From Candidatus Woesebacteria bacterium RIFCSPLOWO2_01_FULL_39_23 (lineage in GTDB: Bacteria > Patescibacteriota > Microgenomatia > UBA8517): DNA of 54,496 nucleotides. The notes under the pieces were generated by a model. That model was given only the letters and a program-made list of their open reading frames with translations, was not told where the DNA came from and did no database searches. Below, piece by piece: positions 37,599 to 53,792 of the stretch. Position numbers and translations under genes: made by a program. Each line of letters starts with the position of its first letter. Positions within the stretch are counted from its first letter, which is position 1. The DNA lies in NCBI GenBank assembly GCA_001793095.1, contig MGHG01000015.1, positions 1 through 54,496 of the forward strand. The letters run 5' to 3'.

Positions 37599-37617
37599 TG
37601 GGTACAATCGAGTTATC

Positions 37618-39150
37618 ATGCTCGCCAAAATTACTTCAGGGGCAACCGTAGGGCTTAATGCTACAACTATCGATGTTGAAGTTGATATCCCAAACGAAGG
37701 CTTGCCGAGCTTTACAATAGTTGGTCTTCCCGATAAAGCCGTCGAAGAAGCAAAGGAAAGAGTGCGAAGTGCGATTAAAAACTCAGGGGCCGACTTCCCT
37801 ACGACCAGAATCACGGTTAATCTTGCTCCGGCGGATCTTCCCAAAGTAGGACCGGCGTATGATTTGCCGATTGCATTGGGTATATTAATTGCATCAGGGA
37901 ATATTGCGCCTCGAATTTCCGACACTCTTTTCTTCGGTGAACTTTCTCTTGATGGAAGTTTGCGTCACACAAACGGAATTCTTCCAATGGCGTACCTGGC
38001 AAAGGAGAAAGGTATCAAAAGGCTTTTCATTCCTAAAATTAATGAAAAAGAAGCAGCTGTGGTATCAAACATCGACGTTTTTGCGCCCGAGTCACTTCTT
38101 GATCTGGTCAGATTTCTTTCAGGAACAATTGCTATTGAAAAAACTAAAAAAGTTAGTCTTTTATCTCTCCTTAAAACTTCGGAAGCGGAATTTGATTTCT
38201 CCGAAATTATAGGTCAGGAACATGCGAAACGGGCGATGGAGATCGCTGCAGCCGGATCTCATAATATATTTATGAAAGGCACCCCCGGATCCGGAAAAAC
38301 TATGCTTGCCCGTGCTCTTCCTGGAATACTTCCGACATTAACAGAGGATGAAGCATTAGAGGTAACAAAAATTTATTCGATAACCGGTAATTTACCCTCC
38401 GGACAATCGATAATTACCAGCCGACCGTTCAGAAGTCCGCACCATACAACTTCACGGATTGGTTTAATTGGAGGTGGATCGAATCCGTTCCCCGGAGAAA
38501 TTTCCCTTGCCCATCGGGGAGTCCTTTTTCTTGACGAATTTCCGGAATTCCCAAGGCATGTATTGGAATCGATAAGGCAGCCGATGGAAGATGGTGTTGT
38601 AACAATATCGAGGGCAAAGGGGTCGGTTACGTATCCTGCACAATTTTTACTTGTGGCAGCGAGCAATCCTTGTCCATGCGGGTATTTCGGCGATCCGAAG
38701 CGAGCCTGTAAATGTCTCCCCGGCATGATTTTACGATATCAGAAGCGAGTTTCGGGGCCTATTCTTGACAGAATTGATCTGCACATATCATTGCGTTTGT
38801 TGGAGACTGATAAATTGGTAGGAAATAAAGAAAAAGCTGAAAGTTCCAAGTCAATTCAAGCTAGAGTTCAAAAAGCCAGAGATATGCAGATTAGACGCTT
38901 CAAGGGTTCTAAGTTTAAATCAAATAGTGAAATGAGCTCGAAAGCAGTTAAAGAATTCTGCAAGTTATCTCCGGAATGTTATGCAATATTAAGAAGTGCA
39001 GTAGCCTCGATGAATCTAACCGCGCGTTCATATCATAAAGTCATAAAGGTAGCCAGAACTATTGCAGATTTGGAGGGGGCGAAAGATATTACTACAAACC
39101 ATATAGCCGAAGCCCTCCAGTACAGACCCCAGAATGATGACGAGATTTAA
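37618..39150 (+). CDS. comM: ComM/YifB Mg-chelatase-like AAA+ ATPase (hybrid: host 5' part plus element-supplied 3' part)
   Basis: IVGLPD.AV.EA.ERVRSA, NLAPADLPK, G.PGSGKT, PFRSPHH, GEISLAHRGVLFLDE, NPCPCG, DRIDL, EALQYR. Confidence 0.95.
   Translation: MLAKITSGATVGLNATTIDVEVDIPNEGLPSFTIVGLPDKAVEEAKERVRSAIKNSGADFPTTRITVNLAPADLPKVGPAYDLPIALGILIASGNIAPRISDTLFFGELSLDGSLRHTNGILPMAYLAKEKGIKRLFIPKINEKEAAVVSNIDVFAPESLLDLVRFLSGTIAIEKTKKVSLLSLLKTSEAEFDFSEIIGQEHAKRAMEIAAAGSHNIFMKGTPGSGKTMLARALPGILPTLTEDEALEVTKIYSITGNLPSGQSIITSRPFRSPHHTTSRIGLIGGGSNPFPGEISLAHRGVLFLDEFPEFPRHVLESIRQPMEDGVVTISRAKGSVTYPAQFLLVAASNPCPCGYFGDPKRACKCLPGMILRYQKRVSGPILDRIDLHISLRLLETDKLVGNKEKAESSKSIQARVQKARDMQIRRFKGSKFKSNSEMSSKAVKEFCKLSPECYAILRSAVASMNLTARSYHKVIKVARTIADLEGAKDITTNHIAEALQYRPQNDDEI
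38767..38801 (+). other. attL junction (B arm, core TGCAC, P' arm)
   Basis: GACAGAATTGATCTG-CA-CATATCATT-GC-GTTTGTT; right arm is the inverted complement of the left arm of attR. Confidence 0.85.
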
Positions 39151-39212
39151 CTCCTTAGTGCTTCTTATTTCAACAATTTAAAGCTATAATTCGTTATAGT
39201 ATTAAAATTAAT

Positions 39213-39938
39213 ATGAATCTTAAAGATAAAGTAGTATTAATTACCGGATCGAATCAAGGATTGGGGAAAGTTCTTGCTAAAAAGGTTGCAAAGGATGGAG
39301 CAAAAGTAATTCTTTTGGCAAGAAGAGAGAATCTTCTTAAAGAAGTTAAAGATGAAATAACTAAAGATGGAGGTTTAGCGGAGTACTTCGTTTGTGACAT
39401 TCGCGATAGTAAACAGGTAACAAAAACAGTAAATAATCTTATCCACAAATACAAAAAAATCGATGTCTTAGTAAATAATGCAGGAGTATGGACAGATGAT
39501 GAAAGTGAGAAGAGAAAACCAGAGTTAAGGAAAAACGCCTTTGATACCAATGTTTTTGGGCATGTTCAGGTTACTGAAGAAATATTACCTTACCTAAATA
39601 AAGACGAAAGTATTATCTTCAATACAATTTCTACAGCAGGAGTACCAGATATTCCATCAGGCAATAATTTGATGTGGAAATCATATGGAGCCTCAAAATG
39701 GGGAATGGTTGGTTATACACAGGCACTACGGGAATCTTTAAGAGATACTAATACAAAAGTAATCCAGTATTTTCCTGGTGGTTTTGAAAGCAATTTATAT
39801 GAGAATGCAGGAAGAGAAAATCCTCATAATCAGCCTTGGATGATGAAAACGGTAGATGTTGCAGACATAATTATATTTGCATTAACCAGACCGAAAGATG
39901 TTTATATGGAGAAAATTGTTGTGTCGAAAAAGAAGTAA
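39213..39938 (+). CDS. SDR family oxidoreductase
   Basis: TGSNQGLG, NNAG, YGASK. Confidence 0.92.
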   Translation: MNLKDKVVLITGSNQGLGKVLAKKVAKDGAKVILLARRENLLKEVKDEITKDGGLAEYFVCDIRDSKQVTKTVNNLIHKYKKIDVLVNNAGVWTDDESEKRKPELRKNAFDTNVFGHVQVTEEILPYLNKDESIIFNTISTAGVPDIPSGNNLMWKSYGASKWGMVGYTQALRESLRDTNTKVIQYFPGGFESNLYENAGRENPHNQPWMMKTVDVADIIIFALTRPKDVYMEKIVVSKKK

Positions 39939-39943
39939 ACATT

Positions 39944-40312
39944 ATGGCTAAACCTAACAAAATAAATTTAAAAGATAAGTTTAGTAAATTTACTAATTTA
40001 TGGAGTCCAAAAGTAATTGGTGAACTTCACGGGGTATCACTTAAAGTGGTTAAGGTTAAGGGTGAATTTAACTGGCATCATCATGATAATGAAGATGAAC
40101 TGTTTTGGGTTATTAAAGGCCAACTAACGATTCATTTTAGAGATGGTGATGAGATTCTTAATCCAGGAGAACTATTAATTATTCCCCATAAGATTGAGCA
40201 CAAGCCCGAAGCAAAAGAAGAGGCAGAGATAGTACTTATTGAACCTAAAGAAACACTAAACACTGGTAATGTAAAGACCGATAAAACAATTGAGAAATTA
40301 GAGGAGATATGA
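39944..40312 (+). CDS. Cupin domain protein
   Basis: GEFNWHHH..EDELF, PGE..IP...EHKP. Confidence 0.88.
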   Translation: MAKPNKINLKDKFSKFTNLWSPKVIGELHGVSLKVVKVKGEFNWHHHDNEDELFWVIKGQLTIHFRDGDEILNPGELLIIPHKIEHKPEAKEEAEIVLIEPKETLNTGNVKTDKTIEKLEEI

Positions 40313-40782
40313 CATTTGTTCCTAAAGACTTTAAAGTACCAGAAAAACTTAAGCAGACAGATTTTCTAATACGTAAATTATGCGCGAGAGATGTCTACCT
40401 TGATTATTTGGCTGTAATGTCGAGCATTGATGTTATTCAGAAAACCCGAGGGGGGAGTTGGCCAACCAAAGACCTAACATTTGAAGATGATTTAATTGAT
40501 TTAGCTTGGCACCAAAGAGAGTTTGAACATAAATCCTCTTTTGCTTACACAGTGATGAATAAAGACGAAACTGAATGTTTAGGTTGTCTTTACTTCTATC
40601 CTCCAAGATTCCGAAAAGAAGCTCCTGAAGGAACAGACGTTGATGTCAGTTTTTGGGTAACACAGAAAGCTTATGAACAGGGTTTATACGATAAGCTGTA
40701 CAAAACAATAAAAGAATGGCTTACAAAAGACTGGCCATTCAAGAAACCGTTTTGGACAAATAAAGAGATTCCCACAATATAA
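40309..40782 (+). CDS. GNAT-like protein
   Basis: DYLAVMSS, HQREF...SFAY, CLGCLY..P, VSFWV, WPF. Confidence 0.6.
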   Translation: MTFVPKDFKVPEKLKQTDFLIRKLCARDVYLDYLAVMSSIDVIQKTRGGSWPTKDLTFEDDLIDLAWHQREFEHKSSFAYTVMNKDETECLGCLYFYPPRFRKEAPEGTDVDVSFWVTQKAYEQGLYDKLYKTIKEWLTKDWPFKKPFWTNKEIPTI

Positions 40783-40788
40783 ATTAAT

Positions 40789-41262
40789 ATGGGTGATTTA
40801 AATAAACTAGCTAAAGAAGTAATTAAAAAAAATCAGTATCTTGCCTTAAGTACAGTAAGGGCTGATGGAAAGCCTTGGACCTGTATTTTGGCTTATATAT
40901 TTGATGATAATTACAACTTTTATTATGTTTCACTTCCTACTTCAGAGCACTCAAAACATATAGAAAAATCTAAGAATGTGTCATTTGCAATTTATGATTC
41001 AACTCAAGGATTTGGTTTAGGGGCAGGATTGCAGGTTGAAGCAGAAGCGGAAAAATTAAACGAAGAAAAAATCCCTGAAATATCAAAGATGTATTTTGAA
41101 AGGAAGTATCCCTACGGGAATATATCCAACGATTTTACCGTAGGTCTTAAAAAGATGATAGAGAGTGGAGTTTATTTCTTCTATAAGTTAACGCCAATTC
41201 ATATTTGGATAAATGACCCAAACGTTGATACAGATAGAAGAGTAGAAGTTTTTGCTAAATAA
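40789..41262 (+). CDS. Pyridoxamine 5'-phosphate oxidase family (FMN-binding split barrel)
   Basis: LSTV..DGKPW, S.HS..I...VSFAIYD, GLQV. Confidence 0.8.
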   Translation: MGDLNKLAKEVIKKNQYLALSTVRADGKPWTCILAYIFDDNYNFYYVSLPTSEHSKHIEKSKNVSFAIYDSTQGFGLGAGLQVEAEAEKLNEEKIPEISKMYFERKYPYGNISNDFTVGLKKMIESGVYFFYKLTPIHIWINDPNVDTDRRVEVFAK

Positions 41263-41305
41263 AGGAAGTTTATAGTATAAGCCACATATAGTAATTAAGA
41301 TTAAT

Positions 41306-41929
41306 ATGATCATAAATTATAAGAATAAAGAACAAGAAGTATTGGTTAAAACAAATCTCAAGAAACTTCTGGATAAAATACCCAATCTTCGTTCAGTAAT
41401 TGAAACCTTAAACAAAAACAATATTAAATATGGTTTATATGCAGGGGCTCACGTAGCGGTTTTGACTTCTAATAGAGAGTCAACAGATGTTGATTTGCTC
41501 GTAGCTGATGAAGATTTTGACAAGTTGAAAGAACTATTTCCAAATTCTGTAATAAAGGGTGGCAAAAGTAATATTTCAGATGGTATTTTTCTTTATCCAG
41601 GAGGAGAAGAGAAAATAGAGTTTATGGCTAATGCAAATATGATTGAGGATGGTAAAAAGTATCCTAATCGACTAACCGAAGCTGTTTGGAATAAAGTTGT
41701 AAGGTATGAAGTTGATGGACTTACTTTCCTAATGCTAGATCCTGTTGATACAGTGGTAATGAAAGCAATACTTCAGAGAGGAAAGGGACAAGGTAAACAT
41801 GATATAGAAGACATTGAGGCTATTGTTAATGTAATAGATCTGGATAAGGAATATCTCAAAGCACGACTTAAGGAGGTAGAAGCAGACAAAAGAGTGTTTA
41901 GAGTATTAAAGAAGTTCAATTTGATTTAA
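41306..41929 (+). CDS. Nucleotidyltransferase-like protein
   Basis: YAGAH...RESTDVDLLV motif and C-terminal K...R..K..D. Confidence 0.6.
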   Translation: MIINYKNKEQEVLVKTNLKKLLDKIPNLRSVIETLNKNNIKYGLYAGAHVAVLTSNRESTDVDLLVADEDFDKLKELFPNSVIKGGKSNISDGIFLYPGGEEKIEFMANANMIEDGKKYPNRLTEAVWNKVVRYEVDGLTFLMLDPVDTVVMKAILQRGKGQGKHDIEDIEAIVNVIDLDKEYLKARLKEVEADKRVFRVLKKFNLI

Positions 41930-41934
41930 AAAAT

Positions 41935-42792
41935 ATGTCGTGGCAATTATTAGTTGGAATTAGTGTTGTTTTGTATTCAGTTTCCGTGCTTCTTCAAAGA
42001 CTCCTTCTGAAAGATGAAAAGAGTGAACCCATATCTTTCTCTATATTTTTTCAGGTAGGAGTTGCGTTAACAATAGCTGTATTAGTTCTCTTAATTCACG
42101 GCAGTATTCCATTGCCAGACTTTTCAGAAATCTCGTGGAGTGTTTTAATAATGACAGTTTTATATGCCTTAGCGAATATTTCAATATTCAAATCTTTAAA
42201 AGCCACTGAAGCCTCACGATTTACTGTCATATTTTCAAGTCGAACAATATTTGCTGTAATTGCTACCTCAGTTGTTTTTTCCGAAACATTAACAATAAAT
42301 CAGTGGTTCGGAGCATTATTAATAATAATTGGTGTAATTATTGTTTCAATCAAAGAAACAAAATCAAAGATAAATAAAGGGGATTTACTGGCAATGATAG
42401 CAGCTGTTCTTTTCGGGCTTGCTAATACTAACGACAGATTTCTAGTCAAATTTTTTGATCCATACTCTTATGTGATTATTGGATTTCTTTTACCCGCAAT
42501 CTTAATTGGAATTATTTACCCGAAGAAAATTACTGGTATTAAGACGTATTTCAAAAAGGATTTTATTTATAAAATGATCTTACTCTGTACCTTATATGGT
42601 CTTTCAGCTTTAGCTTTCTTTACGGCATTACAGATTACTCCAAATGCCTCATTAGCATTCGCTATGTATGCGTTTAGTGGTGTTTTAACAGTTGTTTTAG
42701 CAATAATACTCCTTAAGGAAAAGGATTATCTTTCGAGAAAAATTGTAGGGGCGGTGTTAAGTTTGGTTGGTTTATTGTTAACGAACAAATGA
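41935..42792 (+). CDS. EamA/DMT family transporter
   Basis: 10 TM in two repeats ending FSETL and LLKEK. Confidence 0.88.
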   Translation: MSWQLLVGISVVLYSVSVLLQRLLLKDEKSEPISFSIFFQVGVALTIAVLVLLIHGSIPLPDFSEISWSVLIMTVLYALANISIFKSLKATEASRFTVIFSSRTIFAVIATSVVFSETLTINQWFGALLIIIGVIIVSIKETKSKINKGDLLAMIAAVLFGLANTNDRFLVKFFDPYSYVIIGFLLPAILIGIIYPKKITGIKTYFKKDFIYKMILLCTLYGLSALAFFTALQITPNASLAFAMYAFSGVLTVVLAIILLKEKDYLSRKIVGAVLSLVGLLLTNK

Positions 42793-43298
42793 AAAACCAT
42801 TTTTCAGAAAAAAAGTTAAGATACTTTATAGGAGAAACTATCAAAGAGGCTCAGATAGCTGTCAGTAAAGGTAATTATCCAATAGGGTCTCTTATTGTTG
42901 ATGAAAAAGGAAATATTATTGCGAAGTGTCAAAATGAAAACGCGACCAGAGATGATATAACTGCGCACGCAGAAGTTTTATGTCTGAGAAAAATGGGATC
43001 AAAAAGACTTGCGAAGGAAAATGGTAAAAGTTATTATTTATTTTCCTCTCTTGAACCTTGTGGGGGTTGTGGATTTTTCATGGCAAGAACTAATATTAAG
43101 ATAGTTTATATTGCTTCTTTAGATCCCTACAGATCTGGTATGAGCGTTCTTAAGAAATCAACTGACTTTTCTGAAATCTTTAAAAATATAAATGTAGTTG
43201 TTTGTGATTTTCTCGATTTAGCAACAAAATCTAAGTTGCTAATGAGAGATTATTTAATAAAAAAAGGTAAAAAGGAGGCAGCGAAAATATATGAGTAA
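42789..43298 (+). CDS. Nucleoside/nucleotide deaminase (TadA-like)
   Basis: PIGS, HAE, EPCGGC zinc motif. Confidence 0.88.
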   Translation: MKNHFSEKKLRYFIGETIKEAQIAVSKGNYPIGSLIVDEKGNIIAKCQNENATRDDITAHAEVLCLRKMGSKRLAKENGKSYYLFSSLEPCGGCGFFMARTNIKIVYIASLDPYRSGMSVLKKSTDFSEIFKNINVVVCDFLDLATKSKLLMRDYLIKKGKKEAAKIYE

Positions 43299-43767
43299 AG
43301 ACTACGATTTTGTATCAACCACAAATATGCTCATCGTTAAAGACGGGAAAGGTTTGTTTATCAAACGGAGCGAGAAATTAGAGAATTTTCCAGGTTGGTT
43401 GATGCTTCCTGGTGGAAAACAAGAGGTTGATGAAACTCCACAACAAGCAGCAATTAGAGAAACTTGGGAAGAAACAGGAATAAAAGTATTAAACCCCAAA
43501 CTCAGGGTTGTAGCCACACACAACCATTTTTACAGGAACAAGGTTTACTTAGTTTTTATCTTCCAATCAGATGAATTTTCAGGAGAACTTAAAGAATCAG
43601 ATGAAGGAACTCCACTATGGCTTCCTCTTGACGAAGTACTAAAAGATCCTAAGTTATACCCCGATCTTAAGCGTCATATTAAGTTAGTTTTGGAAGCAGA
43701 AAATGATCAAGTGATATTTACTTACCATAAATTTAATAAAGATTTAGAAATAATCGAGGAGGTTTAA
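43291..43767 (+). CDS. NUDIX hydrolase
   Basis: Nudix box GGKQEVDETPQQAAIRETWEETG. Confidence 0.92.
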   Translation: MSKDYDFVSTTNMLIVKDGKGLFIKRSEKLENFPGWLMLPGGKQEVDETPQQAAIRETWEETGIKVLNPKLRVVATHNHFYRNKVYLVFIFQSDEFSGELKESDEGTPLWLPLDEVLKDPKLYPDLKRHIKLVLEAENDQVIFTYHKFNKDLEIIEEV

Positions 43768-43769
43768 AT

Positions 43770-44234
43770 ATGAATGTAATAGTTAAAACAGCAAAAAGTG
43801 GAGATTGGGAAACCATACAGAAACTTAATAACCAAGTTTTTATTAATGACCAAGAGCATGATAATGATCTTGATATGAATTGGCCGTTTTCTCCAAAAGG
43901 TATAAAGTATTACAAAGATTTGGCGAGCGGGAAATACGGGAAATGCTTCATTGCATATCTTGATAATCAGCCCGTAGGTTATATAGCATTGGCCATTAAA
44001 GACTTCGGGTATCGAAAAAGTAAATATATTGAAATCGAAAATATCGGAGTTAATCCTCAACACCGGTCAAAAGGAATAGGTAAAATGCTAATGGATGAAG
44101 CTGTTGGGTGGGCAAAAGAACAAAAAGCTACAAAATTATACGTTTCTGCTTATTGGGGTAACGAGAGAGCTATAGATTTCTACAAAAAGAATGGTTTTTA
44201 CGAATCGGGTGTAGAAATGGATAAGAGATTGTAA
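43770..44234 (+). CDS. GNAT acetyltransferase
   Basis: VNPQHRSKGIGKML, NERAIDFYKKNGF. Confidence 0.92.
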   Translation: MNVIVKTAKSGDWETIQKLNNQVFINDQEHDNDLDMNWPFSPKGIKYYKDLASGKYGKCFIAYLDNQPVGYIALAIKDFGYRKSKYIEIENIGVNPQHRSKGIGKMLMDEAVGWAKEQKATKLYVSAYWGNERAIDFYKKNGFYESGVEMDKRL

Positions 44235-44311
44235 GTCACTCCTTTTCTGGGACTTCTTTAGTAAATATAAATAACGACAGCTACATCTGGCGAGATTCTG
44301 CATAGGGAAGA

Positions 44312-44515
44312 ATGTCGGGGCAAGTTGAAAGACTTCCTGACCTTCTATATGGATATCCTTTCTATGAGCAAAACGACATTAATCAGTCTGAGATTTATTT
44401 CGGAGACTGGAAGATGTATGTCATCGGGGATAGACAGACAATCTCTGTCAGAACAACAACTGAAGGTGGAGAAGCTTGGAGAAGAAACTCAATGGAGGTT
44501 AAATTTTCTTCCTAA
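44312..44515 (+). CDS. Hypothetical protein (possible remnant)
   Basis: 67-aa ORF with purine-rich sequence upstream; no motif. Confidence 0.3.
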   Translation: MSGQVERLPDLLYGYPFYEQNDINQSEIYFGDWKMYVIGDRQTISVRTTTEGGEAWRRNSMEVKFSS

Positions 44516-44575
44516 GATAGCTTCTTGACATTTTATTTAAGTATAGTTAAGATATACTCAAGATATCTTAACATA

Positions 44576-45274
44576 ATGACCAAAAAAAGCGGAAAAATAG
44601 TTAAGTGTGTCTGGTGCGGCAAGTCTTTATATAAGATACCAAGTCGAGTTCGTAAGTTTAATTTTTGTACGCCTGAGCATTATAGAACTTTTCTAGCCAG
44701 TCCAAAAAATAAAACACTAAGTAAAGGTTGGAAACATAGTGAAGATGCAAAACAAAAGATAAAACTAGCAAATTTGAGTAGGAATTATGATGAAATTTTT
44801 ACAAAAGAAACTCGAAAAAAACTTGCAGAAAGCGCTGGAAATAAAATATGGACTAAAGAGGCTAGAGATAATGCTAGAAAATCTCATTTAGGTAAAAAAC
44901 TTTCTTTAGAACAGATACGGAAAATAAAAGATCATGCAAAATATGATTGGAGAAATAAATCTTGGCGAGGTCGTTATTCAAGTTATGTTGCAAAGCATGT
45001 TTGGGCTGCAAAACATATAAGGAAAACTAGATGTGAATATAAAGACTCTGGTTTCGGTCCATGTAATGGTAAGTTACAGTTAGCAAATATCGATCACAAA
45101 TATTATAAGAGAATCAAGGACTGGAAAGTATTATGTAAATTCCATCACGACTTATACGATTATAGACATGGCTTAAGAAAATTGACAAGTAAAACCAAAC
45201 GCATGTATGTAAGATTTGATCCTCTTCAATTAAGAGACTTTACTGTTGATGGGATAATAGTCAGCTCTACATAA
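44576..45274 (+). CDS. Zn-finger/NUMOD3/HNH-like endonuclease
   Basis: CVWCGK..FC; NUMOD3-like GWKHSEDAKQKI and GKKLS; C-terminal H.W..CE..ANIDH.Y.R...W..LC..HH..YD. Confidence 0.6.
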   Translation: MTKKSGKIVKCVWCGKSLYKIPSRVRKFNFCTPEHYRTFLASPKNKTLSKGWKHSEDAKQKIKLANLSRNYDEIFTKETRKKLAESAGNKIWTKEARDNARKSHLGKKLSLEQIRKIKDHAKYDWRNKSWRGRYSSYVAKHVWAAKHIRKTRCEYKDSGFGPCNGKLQLANIDHKYYKRIKDWKVLCKFHHDLYDYRHGLRKLTSKTKRMYVRFDPLQLRDFTVDGIIVSST

Positions 45275-45279
45275 ATAAT

Positions 45280-45636
45280 ATGAGAACGACTTACAAGAAA
45301 ATGAATAATATAGAAGATATACTAAGGCGCTTGAGTTTGAAGCAATTAGAAGCGCTTGCGGTTTTTATACCAACAGGCGAGAGAGCTAGTACACATATGA
45401 GTATTGAGACGGCTAGCAATACTATTCACACTGCGGTAAATGACAATATAAAAAGAAAGAAAGCAATTGGGGGTGTAATTTCGACTTTGTGTAAGATTGA
45501 AACTCCTTATGGCAAACTTATTTTGCCAGCCGCATGGACTAAGGAAGAAGGAATGCGTTGGACTCTAAATGAGAAAGTTATAAATAGACAGGAACTGAAG
45601 GAGATATTGTTACAGATACCAGGATTAAATATATGA
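45280..45636 (+). CDS. Hypothetical protein
   Basis: 118-aa ORF coupled to neighbours. Confidence 0.55.
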   Translation: MRTTYKKMNNIEDILRRLSLKQLEALAVFIPTGERASTHMSIETASNTIHTAVNDNIKRKKAIGGVISTLCKIETPYGKLILPAAWTKEEGMRWTLNEKVINRQELKEILLQIPGLNI

Positions 45637-45921: not shown

Positions 45922-45969
45922 AGAACTCAGCTTTACGCATCTTCAGATGTCATGAGCTGAGTTTTTTTA
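45922..45969 (+). terminator. Long hairpin with T tract
   Basis: AGAACTCAGCT...CATCTTCAGATG...AGCTGAGTTTTTTT. Confidence 0.65.
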
Positions 45970-45979
45970 TGGAGAGGTT

Positions 45980-46138
45980 ATGAAGAAGAGAGAAAAATAC
46001 AAAGTAGTAAATAATCTCAATTCAGAGAGCGATAAAAATATGATAGCAAAAATATTAGGAAAAGAATTTTTAATATTTCTTAACAAAAACATTAGAGCAT
46101 ATAAAGATAGTAATAATTCAAAAAATGAAAGGGAGTGA
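45980..46138 (+). CDS. 52-aa hypothetical protein (not in ORF track)
   Basis: GGAGAGGT SD then MKKREKYKVVNNLNSESDKNMIAKILGKEFLIFLNKNIRAYKDSNNSKNERE*. Confidence 0.5.
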   Translation: MKKREKYKVVNNLNSESDKNMIAKILGKEFLIFLNKNIRAYKDSNNSKNERE

Positions 46139-46368
46139 TAATAATGGCTATTTATAAAGTGGATCTGGAGGAAATTTGGATAAGGTCGATATATACCCGT
46201 GCGAGTTCTGAAAAGAAAGCGCTTGAGAAAATTTTAAATGGAGATAACGAGGCAAATCTAATAGCTGATAATTTTAACTACGATCGAATAAATACATCAA
46301 CAAAAGATAATTGGTTAGTTGAAAAAGTGGAGAAGAAAGATTTACCAAGTAAATTAAAACAATTTTGA
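46135..46368 (+). CDS. Hypothetical protein
   Basis: 77-aa ORF with SD-like AAGGGAG. Confidence 0.5.
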   Translation: MIIMAIYKVDLEEIWIRSIYTRASSEKKALEKILNGDNEANLIADNFNYDRINTSTKDNWLVEKVEKKDLPSKLKQF

Positions 46369-46450
46369 TAAAGAACAATTAGATTAAACGACCGTAAGTC
46401 AGAGAGACTGAAAAGTTAATGAAAATATGAGATAGGTGGGGGTGATAAAA

Positions 46451-46717
46451 ATGAGTAAAAAAAGGAAAAAAAAGGACAGAAAGTTTAAATGTCTTACTTT
46501 GAATGAGTTAAGACTTATAAGCGATAGCTTAGTGGCTTATAAAGCACTATATGCTATGAAGCTATCCAATTTATATAGAGAATATTTTGACAAATCAGAA
46601 GTGATGGATACTTTTACTGAAGATATTCAAAAAGCAAATTTTGAATGGCCAGATAAAGATGATTTTTGTAACGAGATAGAAAGAGAAATAAGCACGAGAG
46701 AAGTTAATGAAGATTAA
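46451..46717 (+). CDS. Hypothetical protein
   Basis: GGGGGTGAT SD before ATG. Confidence 0.55.
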   Translation: MSKKRKKKDRKFKCLTLNELRLISDSLVAYKALYAMKLSNLYREYFDKSEVMDTFTEDIQKANFEWPDKDDFCNEIEREISTREVNED

Positions 46718-46861
46718 TTAGATTAAATAAGGATTTAACTCAATTTTTAGCCTTAAAAATAAACTATAAGTTATTTAAATTTATTATATGTAACCTTAAA
46801 TAATAATCAATAGCCAAAAATAATCTATGTATTTTATTAGATTAAATCCTTATTAAAACGC

Positions 46862-47050
46862 ATGGAAGAAAAGATATTAACAATTAGAGAAGTGGCAACT
46901 TTACTCAAATATTCTGAAGCTACTATACGATCATGGGTAAAGTCCGGAAAATTACCAGCATTTAAGATAGGAAGAAAGTATAGGATTCGGCTTAGGGATA
47001 TAAATAAACACTTTAAACAGCATTTGCAGGAGGATAATGAAGATGAGTAG
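46862..47050 (+). CDS. Excisionase-family HTH protein
   Basis: LTIREVATLL..SEATIRSWVKSGKLPAFKIGRKYRI. Confidence 0.88.
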   Translation: MEEKILTIREVATLLKYSEATIRSWVKSGKLPAFKIGRKYRIRLRDINKHFKQHLQEDNEDE

Positions 47051-47942
47051 TTATAAGTTAGAAACTGCGATAAATGGTTTTCTAGGCTATTTAAGAAGTG
47101 TTAAACGCCTCTCAAACAGGACTATTAAAGCATATCAATATGATTTGACAAGCTTTTTAGGTTATTTCAGAGATAATAACGTCTTAGATATAGAAGACAT
47201 ATCGAAAGAGCATATCAACCAATATTTATCTTGTATAACATTATCAAAAACAGGTTCAACAGCAAATTACAATAGAAAATTATCTTGCATAAGGTCTTTT
47301 TACAATTATTTAGGGCAAAAAGGATTCAATAAAGCTTTTATTGAAGAATATCGGCCAGTTAAGAACCACTCTAGACAAATAAGTTATTTAACGGAGGTCG
47401 AAAAGAAAAAATTTATAGATACAGTTAAATATCACTCTACCCCTTTTTATAAAATTCGAGATTTATCAATAATATCACTCTTTCTAAATACAGGAATTAG
47501 AGTAAGTGAGCTTGTTAATCTTAGGATTGACGATATAGATTTTAGAAAGGAAGGCTTCAGTTATATTCGAATTACGAGAAAAGGCGGCAGTGAGGAAACT
47601 CTTCCATTATCGAATGAGGTTGCAAAAAGAATACAGAAATATTTAAAGAAACGTCCACAAATTAAAGAAAGAAGAGTATTTATAGGCCGTAAAGGAACAA
47701 ACTTACAAGCTAACTCTATATATTACTTAGTCAAAAAATATTTAAGAAAAGCCGATATAAATAAGAAAAAAATGGGACCCCATATGTTAAGGCATACAGT
47801 AGGGGTCAGCCTTCTGAAAAAGGGAGTTGATTTGTTTACCATTCAAAAGATCTTAGGTCATAAAAGATTGGACACTACTTCTGTTTACCTACATGTAGAA
47901 CCGGAAGATATTGAACGCGCTATTAATCTTATCACCATATGA
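47037..47942 (+). CDS. XerC/D-like tyrosine recombinase
   Basis: SAM-like N-domain (LS.RT..AY..DL); catalytic TGIRVSE, RKGG, HMLRH, LGH, TSVY. Confidence 0.93.
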   Translation: MKMSSYKLETAINGFLGYLRSVKRLSNRTIKAYQYDLTSFLGYFRDNNVLDIEDISKEHINQYLSCITLSKTGSTANYNRKLSCIRSFYNYLGQKGFNKAFIEEYRPVKNHSRQISYLTEVEKKKFIDTVKYHSTPFYKIRDLSIISLFLNTGIRVSELVNLRIDDIDFRKEGFSYIRITRKGGSEETLPLSNEVAKRIQKYLKKRPQIKERRVFIGRKGTNLQANSIYYLVKKYLRKADINKKKMGPHMLRHTVGVSLLKKGVDLFTIQKILGHKRLDTTSVYLHVEPEDIERAINLITI

Positions 47943-49627
47943 ATATGTTAGGAACATATGACCATCATGCAACTTATGTAAATGAAGATAGTGGGCTCCA
48001 AAAGTCAAAATTTATAGTGGCAGTATATATACGAGTCTCCGGTGAATCGCAAGCCGAAAAAGACAAAGTCAGCTTAGACATTCAAAAGAAAGACTCATTG
48101 AATTATGCAAACAAACAATGTTGGAGAGTATTTAAAGTTTATGAAGATGTTTTAACTGGCTATTTAGACTTTGAAAACAGAATCGGAGGAAAAGAACTTT
48201 TGGATGATGCAAGACAAGGAAAATTTAATTTAGTACTACTTTGGGATAGTGATAGGACTGGCAGGGACCCTGAAGCTTTGGCAGCAAAGCTTTTTAGGCA
48301 TTATATGAGAGAGTTGGGAATACAAGTTACGTCACTTGACCAGCCCCTTATTCTAAAAGACCCAGATGAATATAAATATGACCCATATGATGAGGGACAA
48401 ATATTTATGGAAACAATACATGACTTACAAAGTGCTACTACAGTAAGCAAGTTTAGACGTAGAAGTATGGAGTCAAAGCAAGAGAGGGCTAGGGGTGGAA
48501 AGATGCTTAATACACCGCCCTACGGTTATAAGCTTGAGCCCCTTCGAGACGAAAATGGAAACATCATTATTAAAAAAGATGGCAGGATCGTTTATAAAAG
48601 AGTCGTTCAAGAGAAAGAAAAACCTATCGTTTTGAGAATTTATCATGAATACGTATTTAAAGGTAAAAGCATGAATGGAATTAGAGATCAGTTAAATGCT
48701 GAAGGTGTACCTACACGTAAAGGCAGACATTGGGAGAGAGCTATGGTTGCCAGAATATTGAAAAATCCAGTTTATTTTGGAGCATTAATCTATAACAAAT
48801 ATTTTAGAAGAAAAAATGCTTTAACAGGCACAACGAAAATGGGAAAAAATCCGTTCGAGAAATGGATTGTAGTTCCTCCCGGACAAACGGAACATGAGGC
48901 AATTATTAAAAAAGATTTATTTGATAAAGCTCAAGAGGTAAGGAAAGCAAAATTAAGATTAGGATCGGTGGCAGTTTATAACGACTTCTTATTAAGTGGA
49001 TTATCTAAGTGTGAAATATGCGGCAGTAAGATGTATCGAACGAAAGTAAAAACAACTTATACGAGGAAAAGTGATGGAGTTACAACAAAATCTCAAAGTA
49101 ATGGTTATATATGCGGAAGATGGCAGAGGTTTAGAGATACAGAAAGAAACTATATATCTGAGTCAGAGTTAAAGAGTGCTGTAATAAACGACTTAAAACG
49201 TCTAAAAGATAACCCAGATGTCTTAAAAGGATTTTTAGCTGAAAGCGATAAAAAAAAGGTAGATGACATTTCGAGTAGGTTGGAGTTTTTAAGGAGTAAC
49301 CTATCAAAAATAGACAGCAGATATAGTCGTCTAAGGCGTGCTTACGAATATGGAAGTTTATCAATGACTAAGTTTAATGATGCGGTAGACGAGTTAGGGC
49401 ATGAAGAAGGGGTTATGAGGGAACAAGTTGTAAAACTTGAGAGCCAGATAAAAGATGAACAAAGAAGGGAGCTTACCAGAGAAGATTTTAAACAGGCAAT
49501 TAACAGGTTTGAGGAAATATTTCTAAAAGGAGACATTGCTGACCAAAAAGCATTTTTAAGATCTCTAATACAAGAAATTGTGGTTGGTAATAAGAAGATA
49601 ACTATCAATTATTTAATTAGTAGATAA
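47939..49627 (+). CDS. Large serine recombinase (integrase)
   Basis: YIRVS catalytic Ser, DRTGR, PPYGY, ILKNPVYFG, HEAII, zinc ribbon LSGL.KCEICG..YIC, coiled coil. Confidence 0.95.
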   Translation: MNMLGTYDHHATYVNEDSGLQKSKFIVAVYIRVSGESQAEKDKVSLDIQKKDSLNYANKQCWRVFKVYEDVLTGYLDFENRIGGKELLDDARQGKFNLVLLWDSDRTGRDPEALAAKLFRHYMRELGIQVTSLDQPLILKDPDEYKYDPYDEGQIFMETIHDLQSATTVSKFRRRSMESKQERARGGKMLNTPPYGYKLEPLRDENGNIIIKKDGRIVYKRVVQEKEKPIVLRIYHEYVFKGKSMNGIRDQLNAEGVPTRKGRHWERAMVARILKNPVYFGALIYNKYFRRKNALTGTTKMGKNPFEKWIVVPPGQTEHEAIIKKDLFDKAQEVRKAKLRLGSVAVYNDFLLSGLSKCEICGSKMYRTKVKTTYTRKSDGVTTKSQSNGYICGRWQRFRDTERNYISESELKSAVINDLKRLKDNPDVLKGFLAESDKKKVDDISSRLEFLRSNLSKIDSRYSRLRRAYEYGSLSMTKFNDAVDELGHEEGVMREQVVKLESQIKDEQRRELTREDFKQAINRFEEIFLKGDIADQKAFLRSLIQEIVVGNKKITINYLISR

Positions 49628-49642
49628 AGGGGGTGATTAAAC

Positions 49643-50161
49643 ATGAAGGAAACAGAAAAGATTAAAAAATGCCCTCATTGTGATAAAGATATTTCATTTC
49701 GAGCTAAGAAATGTCCTTATTGCCAGTCAGATTTGCGAAGTTGGGTAAATAGACATCCCATTTTAGCTTTCTTAAGTGCAATAATCTTATTACCGTTCTT
49801 TTTGATGATAGTGGTTGGATCAACTACAGATACTAATGAGTCAGTAGAACAAACGCCACGAAGAGAATCTTTTAGGGCTAATGTGAATTTTACAGGTACC
49901 CAATTTGTAATAAGTAATTTGGATGATGTGGATTGTTTGGGATCGCAAATGAGTATAAATGGAGGATTACTCAAAGGAGGTTATGAATTGAATGACTACA
50001 ACTTGAGAGCAGGTGAGACTTATACAGTAGGTGCTCTGCAGTTTGCTGATGATAGCGGTAATAGGTTTAATCCATTAACGACTAAACCTAAAACTTTTTA
50101 TATTTACTGTCGAGGTAATAATGAATTGCATGGTACGGGGTGGGGAGGAGAGTTTAACTAG
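49643..50161 (+). CDS. Zinc-ribbon membrane protein
   Basis: CPHC..CPYC, TM helix, extracytoplasmic domain; SD AAGGGGGTGAT. Confidence 0.65.
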   Translation: MKETEKIKKCPHCDKDISFRAKKCPYCQSDLRSWVNRHPILAFLSAIILLPFFLMIVVGSTTDTNESVEQTPRRESFRANVNFTGTQFVISNLDDVDCLGSQMSINGGLLKGGYELNDYNLRAGETYTVGALQFADDSGNRFNPLTTKPKTFYIYCRGNNELHGTGWGGEFN

Positions 50162-50299
50162 TCGAGGATACTTTATCATTAAAGTTAAGTGTTTTCTCTG
50201 AGGCTAGCTTGATGAATAAAAATTGAGATTTTATAAAAGATGATTACCCATACCTCTTTTAGGTAAAATTGATTTTTAATTCAGGTAAAAAAATGCTAT

Positions 50300-50950
50300 T
50301 TACTTCCCTTTTAAAAGGTTTATAAGTTTCCCTTGGACTACAAAATTGTTAACAATTGGACTGTATTTTGGATTAGCGGGAACTAGAATTGGCCAACCAT
50401 CAACGATTTTGAATTTTTTCAAAGTAACTCCCCTATCTGGTATCAAAGCTGCTACGATATCTCCATCATTTGCTATAGGCTGTGAGGCAATGATAGCTGT
50501 ATCGCCATCATCTATTCCAGCACCAATCATGCTATCACCTGTAACTTTTACAGCAAATACATTTGTAATACCTTTTGTGTCTTGTATTGAGACATCAATT
50601 TTAGAATCACTGAATTCGTCGACCATAGAAGCGTAGCCGGCAGGTATTGGGGAGGTCATTAAGGGAATGGAGATTGTTTCTTCTTCCTCTGCAAATGGTA
50701 CGGAAACTGTTTTATTAGAAGAAGTTCCTAGTAGAGCGGGGTTTAAATAAATACCTCTCGCGCCACGGTTCCTTGTAATATAACCAGCTTCTTGTAATGC
50801 TTCGAGTTGCAAGATTACGCCCCGTGTGGATTTGATGCCAGATGCTTTTTGAATTTCTCTTATTGTGGGCGAATTACCAAAAGTGTTTACTTGAGTAACT
50901 ATAGTATCTAATACTTTTTTCTGCCTATCTGTGAGATTTTTATAGTACAT
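50300..50950 (-). CDS. lexA: LexA-like repressor (wHTH plus S24 peptidase)
   Basis: LTDRQ..PTIREI..L...GYI.R..ARGI; AG cleavage site (IPAG), GDSM Ser, TLKK Lys. Confidence 0.9.
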   Translation of the reverse strand: MYYKNLTDRQKKVLDTIVTQVNTFGNSPTIREIQKASGIKSTRGVILQLEALQEAGYITRNRGARGIYLNPALLGTSSNKTVSVPFAEEEETISIPLMTSPIPAGYASMVDEFSDSKIDVSIQDTKGITNVFAVKVTGDSMIGAGIDDGDTAIIASQPIANDGDIVAALIPDRGVTLKKFKIVDGWPILVPANPKYSPIVNNFVVQGKLINLLKGK

Positions 50951-51014
50951 TAATAATTTGTTTACTTGGTATACTTGACTTATGTTTACCTAAAATGTTA
51001 CCATTCTTGCAGTT

Positions 51015-51041
51015 CTTATGTCAAGCATATTTTGGCATAAG
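51015..51041. promoter_or_regulatory. Candidate operator in the lexA/CBASS divergent region
   Basis: CTTATGTCAA-N7-TTGGCATAAG inverted repeat (1 mismatch) overlapping a minus-strand TTGACA at 51019-51024. Confidence 0.45.
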
Positions 51042-51054
51042 AGGAAATCAAAGA

Positions 51055-51348
51055 ATGATAATAGCAGATTACAACTTCGAAGGTCCGTGGTCTTTAGATC
51101 AAATCTTCAATGATGTTCCTGGTATTTATGTAATTTATACTTCCCAAAAATGGTTGGATGTGGGAGAAACAGATAAATTAGGTCAACGCCTTAATGGAGA
51201 AAACCATGAGAGGAAATCTCAGTGGATTTTGAATTCTAATAGACTTCCAATAAGTATTGCATTTTTACAGGTTGACAACATAGCTCTTAGATTAGTGGTT
51301 GAGTCTCGGTTAAGACAGGTATTGTCTCCCGTTTGTGGAGAAAAGTAA
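51055..51348 (+). CDS. Small GIY-YIG-like nuclease
   Basis: PGIYVI...DVGET..L..RL...H..W...R...E pattern. Confidence 0.6.
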   Translation: MIIADYNFEGPWSLDQIFNDVPGIYVIYTSQKWLDVGETDKLGQRLNGENHERKSQWILNSNRLPISIAFLQVDNIALRLVVESRLRQVLSPVCGEK

Positions 51349-51350
51349 AA

Positions 51351-51902
51351 ATGAATTTAGACAAAATAAGCTCTGCATTAACTATTTGGGATATTGTCAA
51401 AGTAGCATTTGGATTCTTGGTTCTCTTTTTTGGATTCCTGATTATATTTTGGAGGTCAATTAAAGTCTTTTTTCGATTAGGTAGAAATTTAGGTCGTAAA
51501 GTTTTTGTCTTTTGTCCTCCCGGAGGAAACAGGAATTCTGGAACTAATAAAAATATGGAACGGGAGCTAATAGTTCTCAGAAATTCTGGTTATTTTGAAG
51601 TACCTAAACAACCAATAACTGATTTTAATTCGATTGATGTTGTTGATATCGAAAAAGCTGGAGTGATCGTATTGGGATATCATCAGGAAATGAAAAACTT
51701 TAATGAATTTGTTGACTTAGTTAGACATGTCGGTAAACCTCTTATTATTTACACTTTTGAGTTGGGGTATCAACTTAAAGAAGAACATAGAAAAAAAGTT
51801 AAAGGTTACAAATGGTATGTGTTATCGAGTATGCCGCTTCGATTAGTGAGCGACCTCTTTGCTGTTATGGCTTCATATAAATATGAACAAGAACGAAATT
51901 AA
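51351..51902 (+). CDS. Putative CBASS effector: single TM plus Rossmann-like soluble domain (possibly NARF)
   Basis: N-terminal TM, alternating beta/alpha pattern (VFVF, VIVLG, LIIY); overlaps the CD-NTase start. Confidence 0.5.
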   Translation: MNLDKISSALTIWDIVKVAFGFLVLFFGFLIIFWRSIKVFFRLGRNLGRKVFVFCPPGGNRNSGTNKNMERELIVLRNSGYFEVPKQPITDFNSIDVVDIEKAGVIVLGYHQEMKNFNEFVDLVRHVGKPLIIYTFELGYQLKEEHRKKVKGYKWYVLSSMPLRLVSDLFAVMASYKYEQERN

Positions 51903-53313
51903 TACCACTCTAGAAGAATTTTGTAGAAAATATTTATCCCCTTCATCAGACGAGAGGACGTCAATTTCCAAACTCTATAAACAGCTTCAAGATATATTGC
52001 CAGGTAATGAGATTTTTCAAAGTGGTTCATATAAAAGGGAAACAGCGGTAACCCCCGTTCATGACTTAGATGTAATTTGGGTGTTACCTGAATCTTTACA
52101 GGTATCAGGAGAGGAGTTGTTTTCTAGAATCAGTCAAGGAGAACCTTTTTATTTTGATGTCAAAAAACCGCTTGAAAGTTTAGCTTCGGTGTTGACTGAC
52201 GGTTATAGAAAAGTTGGTATGGATATAAAAATAGACTTGTCGCAAACACACTCTGTAAATATATCCTTTCCTAAAGAAAAAGACTTCTCAGTAGACGTTG
52301 TTCCTGCTCTGAGGTCAGGTAGAAAAAACAAGTATGGAGATGATGTCTACCTGGTACCTGAAATTCAGAAGTTTAGTCGTGGAAGGCGAGTTGAAATGTA
52401 TAAAGCATACGGTGAAAAAATTCCGTGGATTTTGTCTGACCCAAAAGGTTATACAAGTCAGTCATTAGAGCTTAATTCGAATCTAAGTTATAGAAAAACA
52501 GTTAAATTTGCCAAAGTTTGGAAGAAATCGTGCAATGCGAGTTTGATAGACTTTGAGTTGAAATCTTTCCATTTAGAGCTGATTGTTGTCGATATATTTC
52601 TCCGAAACAAAAGTATAAATTTTTTTGATGCTATCTGTCTTTTTTTCAGCAACCTGGACACATGGCTAGCAGCTCCAACAATACCAGATATGGCAGACTG
52701 TAATATGTTTGTAGATAGTTATTTAAATGATGACGTTGCAGGCTTGCAAAGAGAACGAGCTATAAACTTTGCTTCAAAAACCCTAGATAGGCTGCAGAGT
52801 ATGTTACTAAAAAATAATATCGATGAGCTTTATTTATTGCTCAGGGAATCTTTAATTTCCACACCTCCATGGGGCGCTAACTCGTCTGCGAGAAAATTAG
52901 AAATTACTTGCCAGATTGAACGTAGAGAGAAAGATAAATTTCGCAACTCAACTAATTTGAAAAGAATAAAGAGTAATCTGCCAAGTTATGCGCTTCAAGC
53001 GATTAACGGACCGAAGCCTATGATCTCTGGGGAATATATTGGAAAAGAATATTTTTTACTTTTTACTCCTCTGATTGATGGATTAGAGTATGATGATATA
53101 CGATGGTTGGTTGTGAATAACGGTATAGAAGCTTTAGATATTGCCAGAATAGGAGGCTGGAGGGGTAATGAGTTTCATTTCTGTGAGAAAGATTCTATTT
53201 CTCGAGAAGAGCATACAGAATATCCAGGTATGCATTGGATTGAGTGCTATGTAATTAAAGAAGGAGTCTGCGTAGGCTCAGGCAAGTTCTACGTAGGAAT
53301 TAGATCAGATTGA
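51883..53313 (+). CDS. cGAS/DncV-like nucleotidyltransferase (SMODS) with C-terminal AGS-C domain
   Basis: QSGSYKRETAV.P.HDLDV, VDVVPA, SDP, K.WK, KSFHLEL; AGS-C motif W.VVNNG.EA..RG...E.T.Y.G.HWIECY. Confidence 0.88.
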   Translation: MNKNEINTTLEEFCRKYLSPSSDERTSISKLYKQLQDILPGNEIFQSGSYKRETAVTPVHDLDVIWVLPESLQVSGEELFSRISQGEPFYFDVKKPLESLASVLTDGYRKVGMDIKIDLSQTHSVNISFPKEKDFSVDVVPALRSGRKNKYGDDVYLVPEIQKFSRGRRVEMYKAYGEKIPWILSDPKGYTSQSLELNSNLSYRKTVKFAKVWKKSCNASLIDFELKSFHLELIVVDIFLRNKSINFFDAICLFFSNLDTWLAAPTIPDMADCNMFVDSYLNDDVAGLQRERAINFASKTLDRLQSMLLKNNIDELYLLLRESLISTPPWGANSSARKLEITCQIERREKDKFRNSTNLKRIKSNLPSYALQAINGPKPMISGEYIGKEYFLLFTPLIDGLEYDDIRWLVVNNGIEALDIARIGGWRGNEFHFCEKDSISREEHTEYPGMHWIECYVIKEGVCVGSGKFYVGIRSD

Positions 53314-53378
53314 GACTCGTTTTGTTTCTCTTCATATCTGGAAACTACAACCAACCGTTGCAATATTTTTAAAATAAA

Positions 53379-53413
53379 AACAAACTAAATGATATGCACG
53401 TTGACGTCCCAAG
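53379..53413 (+). other. attR junction (P arm, core TGCAC, B' arm)
   Basis: AACAAAC-TA-AATGATATG-CA-CGTTGACGTCCCAAG. Confidence 0.85.
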
Positions 53414-53792
53414 TGTAGAGGTGCAGAAGTTAACCGAAAGTTCAACCCGTTCGGCCAGCTCAGGGTTGATGCTGAGCAAAGTCGAAGCATCGAAGGAAAT
53501 TCAAAAACGAGTACAAAGCGCAAGGAATATTCAAATTAAAAGATTCAAGGGAACCTTTATTAAATCGAACGCCGAAATGAGTACTAAGGACGTTAAAAAG
53601 TATTGCGAAATGTCGACGGACTGCAGAATGATGATGATATCAGCAACGGCTAGTATGAATTTAACAGCCAGGTCTTACTTTAAAGTAATCAAAGTTGCCA
53701 GAACAATCGCTGATTTAGAAGGAGTAAAAAATATTACAACAAATCATCTAGCAGAAGCACTTCAATATCGGCCTCAAGAGGAAGAGTTTTAA
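53397..53792 (+). pseudogene. comM: Displaced native 3' end of comM
   Basis: HVDVPSVEVQKL...RVQSARNIQ..NLTARSY.KVIKVARTIADLEG...EALQYRPQ, collinear with 38782-39150. Confidence 0.9.
53442..53490. repeat. Pair of REP-like units in frame in the native comM tail
   Basis: TCAACCCGTTCGGCCAGCTCAGGGTTGA plus ATGCTGAGCAAAGTCGAAGCAT (reverse complement ATGCTTCGACTTTGCTCAGCAT). Confidence 0.7.

Follow-up and report, generated by a model that had tools for sequence, protein, structure and literature searches.

When a mobile element inserts into a competence gene, the usual interpretation is that it sabotages DNA uptake. Genes interrupted by elements with a large serine recombinase (LSR), for example spsM by SPbeta, sigK by skin and comK by A118, are restored only by excision, and the Tn7-like islands of comM use a transposase and target-selector proteins, involve no site-specific recombination, and leave the gene interrupted. 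Classic gene-restoring islands use tyrosine integrases, and their attP is identical to the gene end over some length; phage 21 and e14, both in icd, reportedly carry a surrogate end of the target gene, and their insertion is said not to be a knock-out. Homologues of the magnesium-chelatase/ComM (YifB) gene are the targets that Durrant et al. 2022 (PMC10083194) give for 12.4% of the predicted site-specific LSRs, the target gene of the LSR sr1WO of phage WO in Wolbachia is disrupted, with portions flanking the prophage (PMC9203015), and the ssrA islands of Dehalococcoides have a serine-recombinase module, tandem accretion and islands without integration genes, termed 'cis-mobilizable' (PMC3146451). 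Here, we report a putative LSR island that is inserted in comM and carries a replacement for the displaced 3' end of the gene, found in a 54,496-nucleotide (nt) stretch of DNA from the tiny bacterium of groundwater Candidatus Woesebacteria bacterium RIFCSPLOWO2_01_FULL_39_23 (GenBank assembly GCA_001793095.1, contig MGHG01000015.1). This whole stretch is called the window, and all positions refer to it unless another contig is named. The studied genome (1.13 Mb, a metagenome bin in 18 contigs) is G000 and the window is its contig C15; other G numbers denote compared genomes, L numbers loci, P numbers proteins, and X numbers public runs.

The junctions were located from a short common word. Within 38700-38900, TGCAC has a single occurrence (at 38780), as it has within 53300-53500 (at 53395); the two are 14,615 bp apart, which reproduces both the common TGCAC and the core-to-core distance given in an initial annotation of the window. 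On the inner side, the 18 nt that precede the CA at 53397-53398 and the reverse complement of the 18 nt that follow the CA at 38782-38783 agree at 16 of 18 positions, a score reached by none of 200,000 random position pairs in the window (maximum, 14). The 22 TGCAC sites in the window make 462 ordered pairs, among which the runner-up arm score was 11. The attP of the island, which that annotation had described as a near-perfect inverted repeat around CA, is a short imperfect inverted repeat centered on a non-palindromic CA, the form looked for in a serine-recombinase site; the arm symmetry was 13/18 in G041 and likewise in G079. The outer arms are not symmetric with each other (5 of 25 inverted-repeat matches). 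Joined across the junction, they read in frame D-R-I-D-L-H-V-D-V-P, as had been claimed, and all 29 relatives examined have a motif of this type.

At the left junction, the open reading frame (ORF) at 37414-39150 remains open into element DNA, and the real comM start is probably 37624 because relatives start at that Met. The chimeric ORF keeps all three ComM Pfam domains (ChlI, Mg_chelatase and, at residues 476-571, Mg_chelatase_C; E value, 7e-32), so the earlier statement that the P' arm (the inner arm at the left junction) leads in frame into a diverged ComM tail of ~120 amino acids (aa), leaving comM full length when integrated, held up. With the junction His at residue 457, the 578-aa ORF changes over 9 residues short of where the AAA+ core match (261-466) ends, and the swap thus replaces the last core element and the lid domain. 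At the far junction, 53394-53792 is an open 132-aa frame with an Mg_chelatase_C match of its own (E value, 6e-31), and the carried and displaced tails are 68% identical over 103 aa. The host 5' part is 56 to 79% identical to comM of relatives L002 to L030 and is syntenic with G041:C6. After DRID.H, ISLRLL was read in 0 of 29 relatives, and HISLRLL is not their normal sequence; 26 of the 29 have V or I followed by P at positions 3 and 4, like the displaced tail. The uninterrupted target is represented by the loci of these relatives, which belong to other genera: all 29 run from DRID.H straight into a native-type tail. In G014, G019, and G038, comM is split over contig ends at other positions.

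In the reading that we consider quite likely, an LSR mediated integration at CA and the island brought a replacement ComM tail with it. The LSR at 47939-49627 would have inserted the island (38784-53398) into comM by a staggered exchange of two bases at CA, in the His codon right after the DRIDL motif. The attP would be an imperfect palindrome of ~40 bp, with a right half that doubles as the first codons (I-S-L-R-L-L) of the carried comM 3' end. After integration, the host 5' part would read into the C-terminal (lid) domain encoded by the island, and the original tail would remain at the far end as an unexpressed fragment.

The proposed integrase has 562 aa and the domains PF00239 (residues 27-188), PF07508 (225-336), and PF13408 (351-420), and Y30, R32, and S34 of its catalytic motif Y-x-R-x-S are invariant in all 12 aligned homologues. 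Its clade is rare: at an E value of ≤1e-100, it was found in 3 of 139 genomes of the order, all three with the LSR at comM, and in 1 of 401 genomes of a class sample, namely G000 itself (0 of the 400 others). G041, which belongs to another genus and is treated as one genome with G064 (same contig numbers and coordinates), has a 72% identical LSR at the same comM site (locus L052), an attL with the same B (host) and P' arms, an ISLRLL tail, and an HTH_17 gene (54% identical) directly upstream of the LSR. In G106, a 54% identical LSR is on one contig with a comM that ends 16 codons after DRIDLH, and the matching 3' end is at the end of another contig; judged by these sequences, G106 represents the same site with no repair (comM truncated, no tail). 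The related LSRs of G041 and G106, at the same codon, lend support to the claim of the initial annotation that the LSR acts at these comM sites.

The account of the element in the initial annotation had overlooked a second recombinase, a tyrosine recombinase at 47037-47942, between the HTH_17 gene and the LSR; its identification of the LSR stood. The tyrosine recombinase could be the integrase, perhaps with the HTH_17 protein as excisionase, and the LSR a passenger or resolvase. HTH_17 proteins usually partner tyrosine integrases, and the HTH_17, tyrosine recombinase, and LSR genes overlap end to end, as in one operon. The junctions of G000 share 5 nt (TGCAC), the island of G079 is flanked by a 17-nt direct repeat with one mismatch, and another LSR island (G010) encodes a Phage_integrase protein, though one only 23% identical over 220 aa. 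Tyrosine recombinases normally need an identical overlap of about 6 to 8 bp in attL and attR, more than the 5 nt of G000. The attR of G041 differs from its attL and has only GCA (3 nt) in common with it, too little for such an overlap, which places the exchange at CA, as for a serine recombinase and contrary to a 6- to 8-bp overlap. The inverted arms, moreover, abut a 2-nt center, not a spacer of 6 to 8 nt. The LSR is present in all three islands, whereas the tyrosine recombinase is not conserved at the site: no homologue was found in L052 (tblastn) or in the compared pieces of G041 (tblastx), and none was apparent among the ORFs of the G106 island (by eye, some of them also scanned by Pfam). 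We therefore regard integration by the tyrosine recombinase as quite improbable, and the exchange would be performed by this LSR rather than by its neighbor. The HTH_17 protein may be the directionality factor and the LexA-like repressor the switch; a complex prediction for the two recombination proteins, from alignments of 12 LSR and 2 HTH_17 sequences, gave no answer either way (score, 0.00).

Further instances of the architecture were scarce. A scan of genome contigs returned one locus (L052), a scan of metagenome contigs returned two loci that are 99.8% and 98.4% identical to L052, hence non-independent, and a scan of viral contigs returned none. One of the metagenome contigs (L067) has LSR and attR on one contig; at L067 4907-6549 (98.4% identical to the G041 island), the LSR match comes in two overlapping pieces (residues 7-270 and 276-562), which suggests a frameshift. 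The public record with the G041 island is labelled 'uncultured Gammaproteobacteria bacterium', a label that looks wrong: its comM is 87% identical to that of the window, and the genome is in the window's family. Homologous LSRs of 53 to 65% identity are P0004 to P0013, and there are hints that P0012 (LSR) and P0022 (ComM with an ISLSML junction) may belong together (longest contig, 19,550 for both). The G106 island (L064, G106:C27), which has no tail, has as cargo a 924-aa fused N6-methylase and specificity domain (Eco57I-like; 5186-7960, minus strand) and an ORF (4381-4998) for a zinc-ribbon membrane protein with an N terminus that, by eye, is like that of 49643-50161 in the window.

A second, distant type of LSR (28% identical) interrupts comM at a point 30 codons further upstream, between NPCP and CGY. 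Its own ORF continues in frame into the comM 3' part, as seen in G010, P0015, and P0126, which yields predicted proteins of 716 to 729 aa with recombinase and Mg_chelatase_C domains (in G010, locus L033, G010:C1, 3916-6066, minus strand). In G010, comM has a stop after NPCP and the gene is split in the integrated state. Since an ISLRLL tail is present in the comM part of P0015, a single gene can have insertions at both sites. The cargo of the G010 island includes an R.HinP1I-like restriction enzyme, a C-5 methylase, Vsr, a small terminase subunit, SpoVG, and a tyrosine recombinase.

In G041, ~18 kb between attL and attR are syntenic with G000 contigs C7 and C14, where the link from the end of G041:C6 to the start of C7 is based on synteny alone. 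The block includes a two-component system, BlaI/BlaR-like genes, and a heavy-metal ATPase-like ORF (named by eye from ORF starts). It corresponds to G000 C7:1-7570 plus C14:9400-19975, and lies inside the comM island in G041 at 80 to 98% aa identity. In G000, it adjoins a 500-aa serine recombinase (C7:8501-10003, L074:1502-3004) with only the Resolvase domain at an E value of ≤0.001. This block was first taken as evidence against a simple island and is now read as shuffled cargo.

The carried tail could also be the lineage's own comM end, with the HVDVPSV fragment a stray duplicate or foreign DNA and with no repair at all. A wider protein search seeded with the tail found in-frame ISLRLL, ISLSLL, ISLSML, ISLPLL, and VHLSLL junctions in Woesebacteria ComM, and the occurrence of three of these (ISLRLL, ISLSLL, and ISLPLL) in several proteins is what such an origin would predict. 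In G085, too, a native-looking junction (HVHLPAV) is followed by a tail of 93% similarity, and no second tail was found before dtd, the usual neighbor of comM. Where the context of ISLRLL-like in-frame genes was read (G139, G054, G079, and G052), a further tail or tail remnant was present downstream in 4 of 4, so these are insertions too and not 'normal' sequence. In the window, the in-frame tail sits on the LSR-bearing segment between the crossover points, and the 5' parts nearest to that of G000 (P0047 and P0030; 88%) have HVDVPSV junctions and unrelated tails. In G079 and G054, it is the HxxVPSV tail that adjoins the conserved neighbor dtd, as expected of the original end. The hosts of the tail type are, moreover, scattered on a tree of 5' parts, and we consider an ISLRLL tail native to this lineage highly improbable.

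The tree of 5' parts was inferred with FastTree from 136 ComM rows with 5' parts of at least 370 aa; P0015, with an LSR as its N-terminal part, was left out. The 11 hosts of the element-type tail need 10 label changes on this tree, at least 3 of them forced by starred branches, for a weakly resolved tree and a protein set chosen by tail likeness and hence enriched for this tail type. Shuffled labels needed a mean of 10.7 changes, so the tail type does not cluster with the host part of the gene. This comparison, which the initial annotation had suggested, found the tail type scattered relative to the host part. In the tail tree (35 rows), the element-type tails of G000 and G041 and an orphan tail on contig C17 of G000 form one starred clade (100/95), and the displaced tails fall among ordinary tails. 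These patterns support a tail that travels with the island, and a gene like that of G085 may be the kind of source from which the tail was captured.

Between G000 and G041, the element tails are 94% identical in aa sequence (nonsynonymous divergence [dN], 0.037; synonymous divergence [dS], 1.58; dN/dS, 0.024). The corresponding identities are 85% for the host 5' parts, where synonymous sites are saturated, 73% for the displaced tails, and 72% for the LSRs. The carried tail is under strong purifying selection. Its first codons are held at synonymous sites as well: when five element-type tails are compared in pairs, codons for the same residue agree in 82 of 86 cases in the P' arm (codons 1 to 9) and in 501 of 939 elsewhere, a large contrast, though the pairs are non-independent. 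This constraint fits a recombinase-binding half-site overlaid on coding sequence.

The 21 public runs considered were in the form of assembled contigs, which drop rare forms. Twenty public runs contain at least half of the words of 33781-43780, 17 of them flagged as possible sources. The initial annotation had named chimeric assembly as a risk; in such a chimera, the assembler would have joined the junctions across repeated comM tails of different strains. Variant tails do occur in the samples: breaks in the contigs of X11 and X14 fall at 38775-38804 and 53462-53493, where variant tails of other strains are found, and a 130-nt contig of X14 has 12 differences at 38783-38912. In X1, which may be the source sample and is not independent proof, single contigs (37000-44096 and 44070-53493) cross both junctions as assembled, with 0 differences. 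The same architecture, furthermore, recurs in G041 and in the two near-identical metagenome contigs, among them L067 with its LSR and attR, and a chimera seems hardly credible. Island depth equals flank depth in 4 runs, which may include the source sample. Two records of X14 drew attention. A contig joining 38778 to 53686 was not counted as an empty site, since its shorter side has only 22 letters and the contig may be a relative's uninterrupted comM; a low-depth (3.3) record that runs from 53391 back to 39334 across 15 other letters does not correspond to the predicted circle.

Additional tails were found downstream of comM elsewhere. When the 125 genomes of the family were searched with the tail, at least 11 had two or more tails or remnants (G000, G064, G139, G079, G054, G086, G052, G022, G013, G080, and G141). 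G079 has comM with an ISLRLL tail followed by 5.3 kb of cargo, a native-type tail, and dtd, and none of the 7 ORFs scanned in this island was a recombinase. In G054, comM and its tail are followed by an island, a P'-type tail with a stop codon before it, a second island, a native-type tail, and dtd. G139 has a second tail and G052 a remnant. Displaced tails decay, with 3 stops in G013, 2 in G141, and partial remnants in G022, G052, and G086. In G000 itself, the orphan tail on C17 (5645-6013, L031) is of the P' type and is 90% (aa) and 80% (nt) identical to the island tail (dN/dS, 0.019); it has an ATG of its own, and a stop codon lies just before it. There is no recombinase nearby; Ham1-like and NUDIX genes come next, dtd lies 13.6 kb downstream, and dtd and its membrane-protein neighbor are both on C17. 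The window's locus probably continues on C17 as a deeper stack with a third tail there, a possibility overlooked in the initial annotation, and the join of C15 to C17 is inferred.

On a broader and rather unlikely reading, Woesebacteria comM would be a landing pad for exchangeable cassettes, each headed by a conserved recombination half-site that doubles as the start of the ComM lid. Cassettes without a recombinase (G079 and G054) would have been moved in trans by those with an LSR, an earlier attL would have been reused by incoming elements, and ordered tail stacks would have resulted, with the C-terminal domain swapped at each capture. If this is true, cassette accretion may alter the properties of ComM with every capture.

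The island of the window could be a fixed fossil of the proposed anatomy, integrated once, with no excision and no switching of ComM forms. The contigs hold no excision or circle joint, island depth is that of the flanks, many related islands have lost the recombinase, displaced tails decay, and the lineage is old, the tails of G000 and G041 being at a dS of 1.58. Set against this are an LSR ORF that is intact with its catalytic Ser, a displaced tail still open as a 132-aa frame, nearly perfect attP symmetry, and the P' arm held at synonymous sites. A fossil is possible but on balance doubtful. We infer that the island still excises, with about even odds for present-day mobility.

Several observations weigh against LSR-mediated integration with a carried tail as set out here. 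The in-frame tail type occurs at ≥79% identity in 8 genomes of the family, and the LSR clade in only 2 of them (G000 and G064). The displaced tails of G054, G139, and G000:C17 themselves have a P'-type junction, which implies that a later element used an earlier attL as its target; canonical serine integrases are not expected to target an attL. The tyrosine recombinase is in the same apparent operon as the LSR. The P' arm replaces the V/I-P motif of 26 of the 29 relatives, so full function of the chimeric ComM is not certain; this protein presumably works, for which the selection on its tail is indirect support. The fragmented state of G000 (a bin in 18 contigs) also counts, as does a right flank that stops 1.1 kb past attR in a repeat. 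In the contigs of 4 runs, neither the empty-site joint (~38783 to ~53397) nor the circle joint (~53396 to ~38784) was found, a negative that, with rare forms lost from contigs, does not amount to absence; of the earlier proposal that integration and excision toggle two ComM alleles, the integrated form is borne out and the switching is not.

The features of the locus are listed in Table 1. None of the 22 scanned island ORFs matched Pfam families for phage structural proteins (capsid, portal, terminase, or tail) or conjugation, a scan that covered all but the small ORFs at 44312-44515 and 45980-46138, and the segment is best classed on its gene content as a non-phage integrative genomic island. 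Its G+C fraction is 0.28 to 0.365 (39001-53000), versus 0.305 to 0.456 in the first 38 kb. The window has no tRNA genes, and its left flank is syntenic with another genus (G041).

Table 1. Coordinates of comM, the attachment sites, and the island genes in the window
Feature	Position	Strand	Evidence
Host comM 5' part as far as the DRIDL motif, with Lon-like ChlI domain and AAA+ core	37624..38781	+	Pfam ChlI, Mg_chelatase
attL: host B arm, central CA 38782-38783, element P' arm	38757..38808	no strand	Junction sequence; extent approximate
Element-borne replacement ComM C terminus, 122 aa and stop, in frame with host 5' part	38782..39150	+	Pfam, tail tree, dN/dS
Island, 14,615 bp, between the two crossover dinucleotides	38784..53398	no strand	Arm symmetry; depth same as flanks in 4 runs
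Cargo: SDR, cupin, GNAT-like, PNPOx-like, nucleotidyltransferase, EamA transporter, cytidine/dCMP-type deaminase, NUDIX, GNAT	39213..44234	+	Pfam
Five ORFs without significant Pfam family (249, 118, 82, 77, 93 aa)	44525..46717	+	Pfam scan
HTH_17 (excisionase/AlpA-type) protein, candidate directionality factor	46862..47050	+	Pfam HTH_17, E 7e-17
Tyrosine recombinase (Xer-like), overlaps both neighboring genes	47037..47942	+	Pfam Phage_integrase, Phage_int_SAM_1
Large serine recombinase (LSR), proposed integrase	47939..49627	+	Pfam Resolvase, Recombinase, Zn_ribbon_recom
Zinc-ribbon membrane protein	49643..50161	+	Pfam Zn_ribbon_3
LexA-like repressor (LexA DNA-binding domain and Peptidase_S24)	50300..50950	-	Pfam
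CBASS-like transmembrane effector	51333..51902	+	PADLOC TM effector E 3e-20
CBASS-like oligonucleotide cyclase with AGS-C sensor domain	51859..53313	+	Pfam SMODS, AGS_C; PADLOC cyclase E 2e-73
attR: element P arm, central CA 53397-53398, host-type B' arm	53372..53423	no strand	Junction sequence; extent approximate
Displaced comM 3' end, 131 aa and stop, still open frame	53397..53792	+	Pfam, junction motif as in relatives

Other observations concern the surroundings. The GNAT gene of the island at 43768-44226 has a 75%-identical (nt) copy at G000 C14:3618-4076, in a region that is non-syntenic with G041. Right after the displaced tail, a NUDIX-like gene (53846-54350) is open for 62 aa, has 12 stops in frame, and looks broken. 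The last 94 nt of the contig (54403-54496) recur at the ends of contigs C5 (100%), C4, and C17 (85 to 86%), and their depth is up 3- to 8-fold in the examined runs, as for an assembly-breaking repeat.

If the proposed integration is right, this serine-integrase island does the opposite of sabotage: it gives a spare protein domain in exchange for the place where it lands. The strong selection on the carried ComM domain argues that ComM matters to these reduced, uncultured bacteria. An attP half-site that both binds the recombinase and encodes protein would be a natural test case for the sequence freedom of such sites, and the tail stacks would be a readable record of successive insertions at one locus. 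The practical yield is an LSR from a Patescibacteria lineage with both attachment sites defined.

The locus resembles the LSR elements of the class described by Durrant et al. and phage WO in having an LSR, the same target gene family, and a site inside coding sequence. Relative to phage WO, it differs in that the element supplies a replacement C-terminal domain and the gene stays open, and in that the host is a member of the Patescibacteria and the island is one in which no phage genes were found. The likeness to SPbeta, skin, and A118 lies in the LSR and the site in mid-coding sequence, and the G106 and G010 islands behave in their way; the comM of the window, in contrast, is complete in the integrated state too. 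With the Tn7-like resistance islands of Acinetobacter baumannii (PMC11014353), the locus has comM as a hotspot in common.

The Dehalococcoides ssrA islands are alike in a single-copy conserved target, a duplicated 3' end at the far boundary, and tandem arrays downstream. Their target is an RNA gene with a 20-bp near-identical repeat, whereas here it is a protein gene, with a whole diverged protein domain per island. Like phage 21 and e14 in icd, the island carries a surrogate end of its target gene. It differs from classic surrogate-end islands in that the tails share at most 3 to 5 nt at the crossover, and in that the surrogate is ~120 codons long and 61 to 68% identical to the displaced end, with half of attP as its coding sequence. 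A limited literature search found no description of an LSR element that restores comM, none of an attP half-site that is the start of a carried diverged domain of ~120 codons, and no paper pairing LSRs with Patescibacteria. The targeting of the comM family by LSRs and the general principle of a surrogate end are already published; the repair carried by an LSR island is what is unusual.

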